From the NCBI GenBank assembly GCA_965178125.1, contig OZ237774.1, positions 496,001 through 560,000 on the forward strand: a DNA stretch of 64,000 bases, in the 5' to 3' direction. Shown in pieces: positions 1 through 64,000 of the stretch. The notes beneath the pieces were generated by a model. The model was not told the DNA's origin and did not search any database. It saw only the letters and a list, made by a program, of their open reading frames with translations. This stretch comes from Bilabrum cf. latius. Its lineage: Eukaryota. The position numbers were made by a program, and so were the translations under genes. The stretch's first letter is position 1. Each line of letters begins with the position of its first letter.

Positions 1-3000
1 CTTCGGCGGCTCAAGTCAGAGGTGGCCAAGCAGCTGCCCGGTAAGTCCGAGGTGGTGGTGGTATGTCCGTTGAGCAGGCGGCAGAGGGGCCTGTATGAGG
101 AGTTCCTGCAGAGGGCCTCTGTCAGGTCCGTGCTGCTGGGCAAGAAGAAGAAGAAGAAGAAGAAGAAGAAGAGAAGGACCCGAGGGGCGCAGCTGCTCGC
201 GGGGCCAGGGGATGTCCCCACCCGGGGGTACGCGGGCATGATGTGGGTGCTCATGCAGCTGCGGAAGGTCTGCAACCACCCGGATCTGTTCCTGCCCAGG
301 CCCGTGTGGTCGCCGCTCACGCCACCCCGTGTGACGATTGAGATGCCGGCAGTGTTGAGGCCACGGGGAGTATCAGCGGTGGGGCTGCGGTGGGGCGGGG
401 TGGGGGCGCTGGCCACCCCCTAGGGGATGGTGGGGGACCCCCGCATGGGGGGCCCGGGGCTGAGGGTAGTGGGGGGGGGTGCGTCGGGCGCGGGAGGTGG
501 GGGCACTGGAAGCGGCTCCTCTCTAGGCAGCGGGGGCCTGCTGGCGTGCATCGCCGGCGCCTTTGCCGAGGGCACGTGGGCCTATGACGGGGGGCAGGGG
601 CTGGCGGGGGGCCTGGCGGGCACTTCCGGTTTGGCGTCGCTGTCGGGCCGGGAGGGGTGGTGGACGGGCCCCCGGGGGTCGGGCCGCATCCAGAGGGGGG
701 AGTTCCTCGCGGGGGGTGGGCCTAAGGCCGCCAAGGAGAGGAGGGAGGAGCTGGACAGGGGCAGGGAGCAGCGAGGGAACAAGGGGTGCAGGCTACCCTC
801 TTGGGTGCTGGGCATGCGGGCCGTCTGGTGGGGACCTCTGGCATCCTCGTCTTCCTCTTCAGCGGCGGGGGGCTCCTCGGCTGCCCTGTCAGTGGGGGCG
901 GCCGGCCCCCCGGGGCTGCTGCCCGCCGGTGCCGTGCTGCGGAGGGTCCGGGGGGGTTAGGGCGGCAGGGGGCGGTGGGTCGGTGTGACGAGTGCGGGGT
1001 CTGTGGGGCCCAGTGCGCGCCGGCACCTTTTGGGCTCAGGGGCCTCGGGTGCTTCTGGCCCCCAGCGGTGCATGGGTGCGTGCAGCCTGGGATCGTTCGG
1101 TAGGAAGGCGGTGTGGGTGATGGACGATCTGGAGGTGCAGGGAGGAGGAGGACGATATAGGGGTGTGACGAGTGAAGGGGGTGTGACGAGCGGTGGTCTT
1201 GGTCTCCTCGAAGGAGCCCTGGGCGCGTCCATCCGATCCGGGGTGCACCTGGGCCGGCTGGGCCTGCTGATGGCGGACCGAGCGCAGGCTGGGGAGAGCA
1301 GGGGGGTGCATGAGAGAGCGAGGCAGCTGGGGGTGGGGGTGGCCAAAGCGGCGCTGGCGTGGCTCTTGGGGCCTGAGGGCGGGTCCGCTGCCGAGGAGAA
1401 GAAGGAGAAGGAGAAGGAGAAGCACAACGGCTGGAACCTGTCGGGTGCTGGCCGTGGGCCCGCTGTGGGGTGGAAAGGGGCTGCCCAGGGTGCCAGGGGG
1501 CGGGGTCCTCACGGCCATGGGGGAACTGGGAGGGAAGGTGCTGGTGCCGGTGCTGGTGCAGCTGCCAGTCGCCGCCTGCTTCCCTCGGATAGTGTGACGA
1601 GCGCGGAGATGTTCCTGGTGCGGGCGCAGGCCAGCGGGTGCGGGCTGGATGCCGCGCTGGGGCAGGTGGCCGCGGCGCAGGACGCGAGGAAGGGCGGTGT
1701 GACGAGTGGATCCAAGGGGGGCAAAGGCAAAGGCAAAGGCAAGGGGCAGGGAGCAGCGCCGGGCCCCAAGGTCAGTGACGGGCAAAAGCAGCAGCAGGCG
1801 CAGGATCCGATCCAGGCGATCGAGGCCGCTTTGGCCAGGGCCTGCGCCACCGCCCGAGTGACCCCCGGTGACCTGGGCAAAGCCGTGGGCATGATGCTCT
1901 GGAGGCAGTGCGCCGCCGAGGTCGCCGACAGGTTCGATGCCCCGGCCAGCACGCGGCGGGTCGTGGCCGCGCTCCTGGGCCAGGGAACACAGGCGTCCAG
2001 GGTGGCGCGCGAGCAGGGGGGCAGGAGGCCGCAGGGGGGCCTGCCCCTGGCCGCGCTGCTGGGACAGAACCTCAGCGAACCTTCGCTGGAAGAGGCGGCC
2101 GCCGGCTGCTCCCTGCAGTTCACGCGCGGCAGCCGAGACGCGGCCATCGGTGTGACGAGTGAGTCGAAGCCGGGGGCCTCACGGGGGTGCAACTCCGGTT
2201 TGGAAGCGACCCCGCTGCGGGGTCACCTGGCGCCCCCCGCGGGACCCCCCGAGCTCCTGGGGGCACTCGGCATCCTGCACGCAGGGCGGCTGGCGGCGCA
2301 GGCACTGGCACGGCGCGCCGCTGCAGTGCGATGCATGGAGCTCTCGCTGGAGCGATGCGGTGGGCCCCCTCCCATGGTGTGCGCGGACGCAGTGGCTGCA
2401 TGCAAGCGGCTGGCGGGGGCTCCGAGTTTGACCACCTCCACCTACGGCGAGGTGGGTGGGTCAGCTGCCATCGAGGGGGCCATGGCGGCGGGGCAGGAGG
2501 CGGCGGGCAGGGGCGAGGGGTTTGCAGAGGCAGGAGCGGGGGCGGGGGCAGCCGAGGGGGCCCGCGGGCGGTTCGGCACTCCGGTGCTGAACGGAGCAGC
2601 GCGCGCCAAGGGCGGCGGGGCCATGGGCGGAGGAGGCGCAGGCGGTGACCGGGAGCTGAGGTGGCCCCCCGCGGCCCTGCCCTCCCCCGGCTCACTGGCA
2701 CTCGTGCCCAGGGCCTGGTGCGGAACCGGCGCCGCGGCGGGCACCCCCCTGCAGCGGGCTCTCCTCGCGGGGGTGGACCCTCGGGCACTGGCTCACGCGG
2801 GTCTCAGGACCAGAGCCAAGCTGGGGAACAACCCGGGGAACAACCCGGGGAACTAGCTTGGTGTATCGGGAGGTGCTGACGGGGAGTCGGGGGCTGAGCA
2901 GGGGCGATAGGCTGCGGGGGGAGGGGCAGCTGCCTCCGATGAGGCAGTGGCGACTGCGAGTGATATGGCGTCGGCGGCGATCGAACGGGCGAGGGCACTC

Positions 3001-61400: not shown

Positions 61401-64000
61401 TGGGTCTCGGCGAGGGGGGGTTGGGTGAGGAGCGCAAGGAGGGGGAGGGAGCTGGGGAACAAGAGGGTCCTCTGCAGGAGGAGGCGGGCATGCTGGGGGA
61501 GGGGGAGGAGAGCGCGAGGGAGCTGGGGATGGCTGTAGCCATGGCGGTGGCGGGGGCGAGGGAGTGCGGCGTGGGGCCCAAAGAGGCGGGGCGGGAGGAC
61601 TGGCTGGCGGTGTGCGGGGCCAGGCTCTCGGAGGGCAGCTTGCTGGTGAGGCGAGCGGCGTGGGCTGCGATTGCGTGCATGCAGAGCCGGCAGCAGCTGC
61701 TGGGGCAGGGGCCCAAGGGGCTTGCGATCGTGCCCGGGGCCTCGGGAGTATTTGTGGTGGGTACGGCCGATGGTCAGGTGGTGCCTGCATCTGTTGGATA
61801 GGAACACCCCGTAGATGGCAGCGTGCGCGAGACGGTATGCGGGCCACTGGTGCACCTCTGGAACCGCACTACTGCGAGTGTGGTGCGCGCAGCGGCACTA
61901 GGGGCCCGAGCCCTGTCGAGCGCGGGATCGATTCCCGGTGTGGAAGAGGCATGCAGGGCGCTGGAGGCTGCTGGGGCGGCGATGGACCCAAGCGGTGACG
62001 GCCTAAGGGACGCCGGGACAGCCTCCCAGGGAACAAGGGAGCAGGACCCGCACGACACCCCCACGGCGCTTGCCCTGGCTCGGTGCACCACCGGCCCGGT
62101 GCTTCCCCCTGGTGCGGGCACTGGGTCCAGGGAACAACGTGGACGCGATGATTCGCTGCTGGCGCTTGCCCTCGCCCCTGTGCCGGCCGGGGCAGTGCGC
62201 TCCGTGCTGCAGGGCGCCTCTGCCCCCGGGCTGGAGGTGGGGGCGTGGACAAGGGGAGCCGCTGCGGGCGGGTGGTCGGGGGCAGCGGCGCTGCGGCGGG
62301 CCTGGGCCTGCGGGTTGGCACCGTGGGTGGGAGAGGGGCAGGGGCAGGGGCAGAGTCAGGGGGGGCGCCCAGGGAGCTAGGCGGGATTGCTGCCGGAGAA
62401 TGACGAGTGCATGGTCAGTGTGACGAGTGCTGCTCGTGTTCTGCTTGGCCCGGATGCCACCGAGTCACAGATCCTCGACCTGGTGCGAGCATCGGCGGGG
62501 TGGGCGCTGGCCCCTGCGTCTGCGGATGGAGGCGGGCATGGTGCGTCTGCGATGCCGTGGCCCGCATCTACTCCGTGGGCGATCCGCTGCGTGTGTGCCC
62601 TGGGGTCCGGCATGGCACGGGGGGCGCTTGAGGGGGCCGTCAAGGCGGGCAGCGAGCCGGGGGTGGTGGCGCACTGCGGGTTCTTGTGTTCCCTGGGGAG
62701 GGCACTTGAGGAGGGGGGCGGGGGGGGTGGCGATGTGAGCGAGCTTGGGGCGGGGTGGGCCTGTGGAATGGGGGGCGAGCAGGAGAGGTGCACTGCATTG
62801 TGGCGATGCGCGAGCGCGTGCCAGTCGCTGGGCCTCGTGGGTGCTGCGGGGGCGCTATGCGGGGCGCTGGCCGGGAGGATTCGTAGGGGCGGGCAGCGGC
62901 CTCCCTGGGGCGCGAGGGGGGCGGCGCTGGTGGCGGGTGCACTGGCGGCGGGGGGCAGCGTGGGGGCGGCGTGGTCCGTTGTTTAGCTGCATGCTGAGCA
63001 TGGAACGGGTGGGCAGGACCAGAGCCACGGCAAAGAGGAAGAGGGGGAGGGGGATGGGGAGGGGGATGAGGGGGATGATGACTTGCCCGCCCCGCTGGGT
63101 GCCTTGGTGGACGCACTGGTGCAGCGGGGGGCACTCAGGGACCTGGCTGCCCTGCCTCTGGGGACAAGCGCCCTGCAGGCAGTGGCGAGGCGGGTGGGGT
63201 GGAGGGGGGGTGGCGCAAGTCCCGAGGGGGGCGCTCGCGGCATCGAGATTGGGTGCGCGCTGCTGCTTCGGGCCAGAGACAAGAAGGGCGCGGCATCTGC
63301 GGCGTGGGGGCTGGCCGCTTCGGCAGCGGTGCGCGGTGCCACCCAGCTGCGGGGGGTTGCAGGGGGTGCCCGCGGGGGAGCCAGGGAGGCGGGGCTGCAT
63401 CGGTCGGCTGCCAGTCTGCAAGAGGCGGGGCGCATGGCTTCGCTGGCCACGGCCTGCCTGCGAGCGGAGCCCGATGCGCGGCGCCGTTGGGTGCCTCACG
63501 GGGGCCGAGTCCTGGATCGATCGGAGCTGCGGTTTCTGTCGGCAGCCCTCGAGGCGATGGGCAGGTGCGTCCAGGCGGCGAGCGAGCACGTGGATGGTGC
63601 TGGGGGGTAGAGGGGCAATGGAGGTGCTGGAGGGCAGGTTACCGCCGCCGATGCTGCTGCTGCCGCTGGAGAGGCCAGGGCGATTGTGGGTATGTGTCCG
63701 GTGGAGTGGAGCAGTCCGGGTGCAGTGCACGGCGGTTCTATCCCTGTGGATGTGCTCCTGTCCCAGTGCATCCGACTGGGCCAGCTGCCCGCGGGCGAGC
63801 GGGTGGCAGCGGCGGCGGCTGCTTGGCGCGAGGCGGGGGCATGCCAGGAGGGGCGCGCTGTGGCGGGCGAGGGAGGGGCGGGACGGCGGGGGCTCGGCCC
63901 CAGTGGCAGTGCAGCACGGGGTCAGGAGCTCCGTGTGACGAGGGCGGCTGCCATGCTGGCCTGGGACCGAGCCCGGGACGAGGGCGCTGGGCGGCGGGGG
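58435..64000 (+). CDS. Large protein, probably a highly diverged Nup160 nucleoporin; runs off the window
   Basis: Exon 1 58435-58624, intron 58625-58718, then one frame open to the window end except for 9 TAGs. The segment LVDALVQRGALRDLAALPL...CALLLRARDKKGAASAAW...LATACLRAEPDARRRWV...RVLDRSEL resembles the Nup160 helical region from memory. Beta-propeller-like strands occur near the N-terminus. Confidence 0.55.

Follow-up and report, generated by a model that had tools for sequence, protein, structure and literature searches.

The 64,000-nucleotide stretch of Bilabrum cf. latius DNA considered here (contig OZ237774.1, positions 496,001 to 560,000 of the forward strand), referred to below as the window, carries a series of eukaryotic genes in which one short DNA word, the 9-mer TGTGACGAG with its 13-nt full form GGTGTGACGAGTG, recurs on both strands. 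Genes supported by Pfam are spread across the window and encode a lamin, Sec61 alpha, a UDP-glucose 4-epimerase (GALE), Gpi1, an Snf2/SWR1-like ATPase, a WD40 protein, a CAF1/PARN-like nuclease, an RCC1-like protein, RRP36, an FG-GAP protein of the integrin-alpha-like type, RPS10 and RBX1. The lamin and Sec61 alpha genes, together with a poly(A) tail and a GT..AG intron (see below), show that the window is eukaryotic nuclear DNA. Counts and shuffles were made within this one 64-kb window.

The word-bearing stretches count as coding only with TAG in the role of a sense codon, a reading that the frames themselves support. In frame 0 of 1-9384 (+), which comprises 3127 codons, in-frame TAG occurs 11 times and neither TGA nor TAA occurs at all, although TGA is found 56 and 49 times in the remaining frames of the same stretch; in six further long open reading frames (ORFs) the in-frame stops are likewise TAG only. 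The behaviour is clearest in 1-9384 (+), 12458-15829 (+), 47401-50748 (+), 58439-64000 (+) and 35425-38016 (-). The long ORFs terminate in TGA or TAA, and RPS10 stops with TAA shortly before its poly(A) site. Judged from these frames, TAG is a sense codon, with TAA and TGA still serving as stops. It is probably decoded as glutamine; the amino acid is indicated by one clear alignment column, in the FG-GAP gene, where TAG stands at a position at which five paralogous repeat units have CAG. No TAG is present in the eight Pfam-supported domain stretches (~2300 codons), and ARAGORN found no tRNA in the window, hence no tRNA(CUA) there. The window displays the features of a code of the NCBI table 15 type, in which TAG specifies glutamine and genes end at TAA or TGA. 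A eukaryotic precedent is Iotanema spirale, for which passages of PMC5304391 describe the reassignment of TAG alone to glutamine.

An initial annotation, made from the letters alone, had drawn attention to a 10-12-bp word that recurs about 50 times on both strands where less than one copy is expected by chance. The 9-mer TGTGACGAG indeed occurs in 47 exact copies, 26 on the plus and 21 on the minus strand, whereas 100 dinucleotide-preserving shuffles average 0.46 copies and never exceed 2, and all 15 positions which the annotation gave as examples correspond to copies once the 1-2 base offset of its longer form is allowed for. In an alignment of the copies, information is found only at positions -2 to +10 around the 9-mer, so that the full word is the 13-nt GGTGTGACGAGTG; the flanks have no information content and are merely G-rich. 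With up to two mismatches the 13-mer is matched 60 times in the window (23 times exactly, 19 times with a single mismatch and 18 times with two), for which local 300-nt shuffles give 0.05, 0.15 and 2.9, respectively. At three mismatches the count falls to background (26 observed vs 27.9 shuffled). The least variable part of the 13-mer is TGACGAG. Position 1 is free, position 12 varies from T to C, and hardly any variation is seen at the synonymous positions 3, 6 and 9. Every copy has the TGACG core; the arrangement is not that of a palindromic cAMP response element (CRE), and 13 nt are conserved. Among the frequent 12-mers of the window no second dispersed word of the same kind was found, the others being simple tandem repeats.

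With TAG as sense, 46 of the 47 copies fall in long ORFs. The earlier statement that the copies lie inside coding sequence is therefore correct, provided that TAG is read in this way. Its accompanying statement that several frames are used applies to the antisense copies only: these number 10 and are spread over all three frames (4, 2 and 4), while 34 of the 36 sense copies are in the single frame that is translated x-Val-Thr-Ser, most often Gly-Val-Thr-Ser (GVTS). The remaining two sense copies are read as Cys-Asp-Glu (CDE), both without the TG suffix that follows the 9-mer in the longer form, and no sense copy occupies the frame that would contain TGA. Examination of the spacings, which the annotation had proposed along with that of frame and strand, showed that in 25 of 27 cases the distance between same-strand copies less than 1 kb apart is divisible by 3, a regularity that copies on opposite strands do not show.

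The Snf2/SWR1-like ORF (1-9384, +) carries sense copies read as GVTS at 984-992, 1164-1172, 1182-1190 (the variant with AGC), 1698-1706, 2151-2159, 3249-3257 (with a one-mismatch copy 15 nt on), 5892-5900, 6831-6839, 8532-8540, 8664-8672 and 8853-8861, to which are added SVTS at 1593-1601, CVTS at 8337-8345 and RVTS at 8472-8480 (all +); its antisense copies are translated LVT (2998-3006, -) and HSSH (5967-5975, -). In the Gpi1 ORF (12458-15829) a sense GVTS copy at 13465-13473 (+) lies between antisense copies at 13357-13365 (-, HSSH) and 13532-13540 (-, LVT), and the SPRY ORF 21621-23213 (-) has an antisense copy, HSSQ, at 22681-22689 (+). The WD40 ORF 23742-25847 (-) has sense GVTS copies at 24382-24390, 24544-24552, 24745-24753, 24928-24936 and 25015-25023 (all -). 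In the membrane-protein-like ORF 27116-28819 (-), GVTS at 27420-27428 (-) and SVTS at 27930-27938 (-) are accompanied by an antisense TRHT copy at 28273-28281 (+). The copy in RRP36 is a sense GVTS at 43552-43560 (-).

The CAF1/PARN-like ORF contains one of the two CDE copies, at 45265-45273 (+), which may be ordinary coding sequence. The other is found at 49069-49077 (+) in the RCC1-like ORF 47401-50748, together with sense GVTS copies at 48216-48224 and 48246-48254 (both +) and antisense LVT copies at 48685-48693 and 50119-50127 (both -). ORF 50871-52658 (-) has GVTS at 51175-51183 (-), DVTS at 51865-51873 (-) and antisense TRHT at 51248-51256 (+), and the coiled-coil-like ORF 51925-54027 (-) has sense GVTS at 53000-53008, 53327-53335 and 53372-53380 (all -). 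Copies in ORF 58439-64000 are read as GVTS at 59152-59160 (+), SVTS at 59569-59577 (+) and 62419-62427 (+) and, in antisense, as HSSH at 59698-59706 (-); a 9-mer with GG as its suffix is read as RVTR at 63934-63942 (+). The sole copy outside long ORFs, at 58316-58324 (-), is situated between the poly(A) site of RPS10 (58264) and the next transcript (from 58382).

Other repeated sequences were seen in the same region. A second recurring word, GACGAGTGC(G/A)TGGT, is found at 59063, 59513 and 62402 (+) in ORF 58439-64000, is translated Asp-Glu-Cys-Val/Met-Val and overlaps the 3' half of the main word; its copy at 62402 is directly followed by a copy of the main word. CATGGG is repeated 21 times in tandem at 6924-7050 and gives an in-frame Met-Gly repeat within the Snf2-like ORF. 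Runs of the hexamer GGGCAG (Gly-Gln) occur in several unrelated ORFs, and 26874-27025 is an exact 73-nt tandem duplication.

The word was also compared with synonymous sequence, since the annotation had named disappearance of the excess under synonymous shuffling as the result that would speak against a conserved DNA word. In 500 protein-preserving synonymous shuffles the mean number of sense copies was 1.4 (maximum 5) and that of antisense copies 0.2 (maximum 3), and the observed numbers are 36 and 10. The excess persists on both strands, and since the shuffles give far fewer sense and antisense copies, it is the nucleotides that are conserved, on both strands. Compared with an expectation from independent codons, the sense GVTS frame is enriched 356-fold (34 copies vs 0.096), the three antisense frames 130-290-fold (4, 2 and 4 copies) and the Cys-Asp-Glu frame 27-fold (2 copies), and the TGA frame is empty. 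When codon context is allowed for, the enrichment is therefore about equal on the two strands. This equality, together with the absence of frames that would harm the protein, argues for a force acting at the level of DNA with a filter at the level of protein.

The conserved genes of lower GC are free of the word. No copy was found in GALE, Sec61 alpha, RPS10, RBX1 (~57080, -), the lamin gene, the FG-GAP gene or the 16-21 kb block, precisely the genes and the block which the annotation had listed as free of the word and which the copy coordinates confirm as such. Its placement of the copies in G-rich, low-complexity insertions holds in part. The RRP36 copy does lie in an 18-residue lineage-specific stretch, at which 9 of 10 aligned homologues are gapped and the tenth has its own unrelated insertion. 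Flanks of the word are, on the other hand, no simpler than random positions in word-bearing ORFs (complexity 3.31 vs 3.32 bits, p = 0.55), nor are they more disorder-prone.

Sequencing-run contigs were examined over 44001-64000. Three runs, X1-X3, were taken as RNA-like solely from the behaviour of their contigs; bins without RNA cover were not counted as evidence, and long-range joints with sides of 20-23 nt at repeated words were disregarded. A poly(A) tail at 58264 is present in X1 and X2 and a GT..AG joint, 58624>58719, in X1 and X3, and the depth of X1-X3 is very uneven, while X4 is flat and DNA-like. It is because of the poly(A) tails, the joint and the uneven depth that X1-X3 can be said to behave like RNA. 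Contigs of X1 (study P1) run unspliced, and with no differing letters, across the copies at 48216 and 48246, which share one contig, and at 59152; several others lie in contigs of X4, a DNA run from study P3. The sole intron supported by a joint, 58625-58718, has GT..AG ends and lower GC and is without the word. By far the deepest in the RNA-like runs are RBX1 (56860-57260, -) and RPS10 (57704-58264, +), which are placed tail to head.

The word is also found beyond this genome. When metagenomes were scanned for pairs of copies separated by 4-34 nt, with no TG suffix required, at least 123 stretches matched. Among the matches listed, loci L001, L002/L054 (99.8% identical to each other), L036, L061 and L087, with GC of 0.56-0.62, carry the TG-suffixed word in the GVTS frame, and their word-bearing ORFs are open only with TAG as sense: one of 2397 nt has 4 in-frame TAG and 7 copies of the word, and another of 2358 nt has 8 TAG with 2 sense and 2 antisense copies. 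One metagenome protein that bears the word contains a SET domain. No orthologues of the window's genes were present among the metagenome loci listed. The same scan on prokaryote genomes, used as a control, gave 86 stretches. The TG suffix is found in 119 of 441 metagenome copies (among the matches listed) vs 10 of 212 prokaryote copies, the latter being the chance level, and all copies are TG-suffixed in 18 of 122 metagenome loci (again among those listed) vs 2 of 80 prokaryote loci. Tandem arrays with periods of 12, 15, 17, 18, 23, 30, 31, 34 and 42 nt, all with ggTGTGACGAGtg, were also encountered among the metagenome matches listed (L029, L001, L100, L095, L061, L044, L079, L014, L098 and L087; contig GC 45-62%). 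L029 is a pure 12-nt array, (GVTS)n, and some of the others cannot be coding as their periods (17, 23, 31 and 34 nt) are not multiples of 3. Evidently, the word is a property of a lineage and persists across differing base compositions. Addition of the telomerase type was considered for the arrays and rejected, as they differ in period. A scan of viral contigs returned only two low-complexity loci, of no relevance.

Several observations weigh against the view that the word is maintained as DNA inside genes. The main weakness is that membership of an ORF and regional GC are confounded, because the non-coding DNA is GC-poorer here: word density in 2-kb bins follows GC (Spearman 0.62, p = 0.00016), with 43 of the 47 copies in the 20 bins of GC >= 0.62. 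The 15,279 nt outside the long ORFs have 1 copy vs 0.12 expected, and the ORFs themselves have 46 vs 0.32. The enrichment in non-ORF DNA is thus far below that in ORFs, although a pure DNA-level force would be expected to act there too unless it were tied to GC-rich DNA. Several ORFs of similar composition, among them the lamin ORF (2.7 kb) and 54282-56609 (2.3 kb), lack copies altogether. The raw ratio of sense to antisense copies, 36:10, is compatible with a role at the level of RNA. The ORF set consists of our own stop-to-stop frames with TAG as sense and not of annotated gene models, run X1 is labelled 'RNA? (probably DNA)' by its classification, and most of the metagenome matches listed are unrelated tandem repeats.

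The explanations that compete with a DNA word can be weighed against these data. If GVTS itself were selected, for example as a modification site, and the identical codons came from recent duplication, the peptide should be common, and it is: with 28 occurrences in the ORF set, GVTS is the third commonest tetrapeptide after SSSS and GGGG, and 34 of the 36 sense copies share its frame. Its codons tell otherwise. Twenty of the 28 are written GGT GTG ACG AGT, six differ only in having AGC, one has GTC and one uses unrelated codons, so that the first three codons are identical in 26 of 28. From codon usage the exact form has a probability of 0.0046, which is low because GGT (16% of Gly codons) and AGT (12% of Ser codons) are minor codons. 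The same codons recur in the lower-GC relatives, the ten antisense copies encode unrelated peptides, and the first residue can be G, S, R, C or D where the synonymous sites 3, 6 and 9 are near-invariant, which is the reverse of what a peptide motif, with fixed residues and free synonymous sites, would give. A selected peptide is in consequence largely refuted and very improbable, and the statement of the annotation that the DNA word and not a peptide is conserved is upheld by the near-uniform codons together with the antisense enrichment. Scarcely credible, too, is a splicing signal, by which the G-rich stretches would be misread introns and the word a splice- or branch-site motif, in spite of the GT and AG dinucleotides and the branch-like GTGAC that it contains and of a coding potential of only ~0.1 near the copies, when Pfam-supported exons have a median of 0.4. 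For up to 3127 codons no TGA or TAA interrupts the reading frame across the copies, spacings are multiples of 3, three copies are present in unspliced contigs and the one supported intron is without the word. A variant with introns running from the word to a TAG at their 3' end was rejected, because words outnumber TAGs and such introns would delete the Helicase_C domain. That the word is an adapter or an assembly artefact, which the annotation had named as an alternative, has nothing in its favour and is practically negligible: contigs of X1 and X4, from different studies, and independent metagenome contigs all contain it, and the reading frame is kept.

More weight must be given to an element acting in RNA, that is, a site in the mRNA for an RNA-binding protein or a complementary small RNA, with selection on the transcript. 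The sense orientation of 36 of the 46 copies in ORFs, the restriction of all copies but one to long ORFs, the presence of word-bearing stretches in RNA-like contigs and an exact match of 10-13 nt, which would fit base pairing, all accord with it. We nevertheless regard it as unlikely, though a serious candidate. Antisense copies are in similar excess (10 vs 0.2, their frames being enriched to a degree comparable to the sense frame), the metagenome arrays with periods of 17, 23, 31 and 34 nt are not coding, and RNA folding gave no structural signal (unpaired probability 0.47 at the word vs 0.42 at controls), with no Rfam family found in the window. The annotation had also suggested the footprint of a tiny self-propagating coding insertion, and the core or excision scar of a small mobile insertion of 3n bases, entering in either orientation and surviving in stop-free frames, would account for the sharp boundaries, the two orientations, the neighbouring pairs 15-30 nt apart and the lineage-specific 18-residue stretch of RRP36; GTG even occurs twice, 9 nt apart, like a 3-bp target duplication around 6 nt. 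The details do not bear this out and make it quite improbable. Similarity ends at 13 nt in every copy, without common flanks or terminal inverted repeats, and the two GTG triplets do not co-vary among the variants. Opposite-strand neighbours within 130 nt are both convergent and divergent with no clear preference, so that neither flanks nor GTG triplets nor neighbour orientation are those of a transposable element, a miniature inverted-repeat transposable element (MITE) or its footprint. Frame occupancy, moreover, matches codon expectation and is uneven over the permitted frames, and the word is nearly missing from non-coding DNA. The probability that is left belongs to an explanation that we have not thought of.

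The account that we favour, though tentatively and as something short of probable, is that GGTGTGACGAGTG is a lineage-specific word, conserved as nucleotides inside expressed protein-coding genes, on which a putative sequence-specific DNA reader acts and which is kept by selection or drive subject to what the protein tolerates. The conservation of the nucleotides, the enrichment on both strands, the frame filter and the presence in RNA-like contigs and in relatives are observations; the reader, its reading of DNA rather than RNA and its action are what we infer from them. Such a reader, most likely a protein that recognises a duplex of ~10-13 bp, would favour the word either by function or by a bias in repair or conversion. 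Candidate functions are those that the annotation had put forward, a site for a chromatin, replication or transcription-elongation factor or a target of methylation. New copies would arise by point mutation in near-word sequence and by short local duplications; a point-mutational origin is favoured over blind insertion because the frame spread follows the codon-based expectation. Copies would persist where the encoded peptide is harmless, namely in the sense GVTS frame and in any antisense frame, and the filter would exclude the TGA frame, nearly exclude the Cys-Asp-Glu frame and spare the cores of conserved domains.

Some features of the neighbouring genes are recorded here. The Snf2/SWR1-like ATPase is encoded in the single 3127-codon frame 1-9384 (+), which continues past the left end of the window, and ~1200 poorly conserved residues, in which no intron is apparent, separate its SNF2 lobe from the Helicase_C lobe. 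The FG-GAP repeat units of the integrin-alpha-like gene are seen in the DNA as a 213-nt tandem repeat of 5.9 copies at 36482-37722 (-). The lower-GC block 16258-20499 (GC 0.52-0.58) has two long frames, one of 726 codons with 12 TAG and one of 612 codons with 10 TAG, which would be closed if TAG were a stop; this use of TAG is far above that of the other genes. The sole domain match in the block is one weak KH domain. Homologue searches gave only generic WD40 matches for the WD40 ORF, no matches for lamin and, at a strict cut-off, only its own 100% Logan protein for Sec61 alpha; the protein atlas assigned no taxon below Eukaryota.

Of known systems, the bacterial uptake sequence comes closest to the word in form. 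Findlay and Redfield (2009, PMC2817400) describe the uptake signal sequences (USS) of Pasteurellaceae and the DNA uptake sequences (DUS) of Neisseriaceae as short over-represented words on both strands and mostly in genes, with doubled encoded peptides, a frame preference and locations at poorly conserved protein positions. The word of the window resembles them in its strong over-representation on both strands, its location mostly within genes, the raised frequency of the peptides that it encodes, its frame preference and its poorly conserved sites, as seen from the conserved genes without copies and from the RRP36 stretch. It differs in that the host is eukaryotic and only 1 of 47 copies is intergenic, and no uptake machinery is implied; because the organism is eukaryotic, the likeness is one of form and not of membership. 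A eukaryotic case in Eimeria is treated in portions of Reid et al. (2014, PMC4199364), in which many unrelated genes have CAG and telomere-like repeats throughout their coding sequence, frames giving Cys or Leu are avoided and a role at the DNA level is suggested. Repeats spread at the DNA level across unrelated coding genes, with certain frames avoided, are common to both. Going by the same portions, the Eimeria repeats are simple tandem tri- or heptanucleotides, whereas here a complex 13-mer is found in mostly solitary copies.

The arrays in the metagenomes, where the same core occurs in units of different lengths, recall vertebrate minisatellites, in which a short G-rich core is common to arrays differing in unit length; the copies in the window are, in contrast, mostly solitary and in frame within genes. 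The TGACG core, for its part, is shared with CRE/ATF sites, which are usually palindromic or paired arrangements of a TGACG half-site bound by a bZIP dimer, and with the fission-yeast M26 hotspot in ade6, which is active in coding sequence and in either orientation. The word of the window differs from both in being conserved over 10-13 nt and non-palindromic, and recombination hotspot motifs tend to be lost, not amplified.

Exact words held at silent codon positions are known in bacteria and phages, and each has led to a machine that handles DNA, be it the uptake receptors or RecBCD with Chi. The literature, as far as it was searched (supplementary files being outside the scope), gave only primer lists for the sequence of the word and, by concept, a listing in which the relevant papers dealt with bacterial uptake sequences and repeats. 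No published equivalent from a eukaryotic nucleus was found there, and a genomic signature word is seen here in one. The host is of interest in its own right, since a free-living eukaryote that reads TAG as sense and stops at TAA and TGA represents a rare type of genetic code. In its widest form the proposal would place the word beside the signature words of bacteria, such as uptake sequences and Chi, as their equivalent in a eukaryote, in that a putative machine that reads the 13-bp duplex would drive or select about 1 copy per kb in gene bodies throughout a protist lineage that decodes TAG as glutamine, and the word would seed in-frame insertions and minisatellites and so shape both proteome and genome. 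This is possible but doubtful. If the reader exists, recognition of DNA would be linked to the growth of in-frame insertions in the Snf2/SWR1-like, RRP36, RCC1-like, WD40 and other proteins, and the word itself would provide a sequence tag by which the lineage may be spotted in metagenomes.

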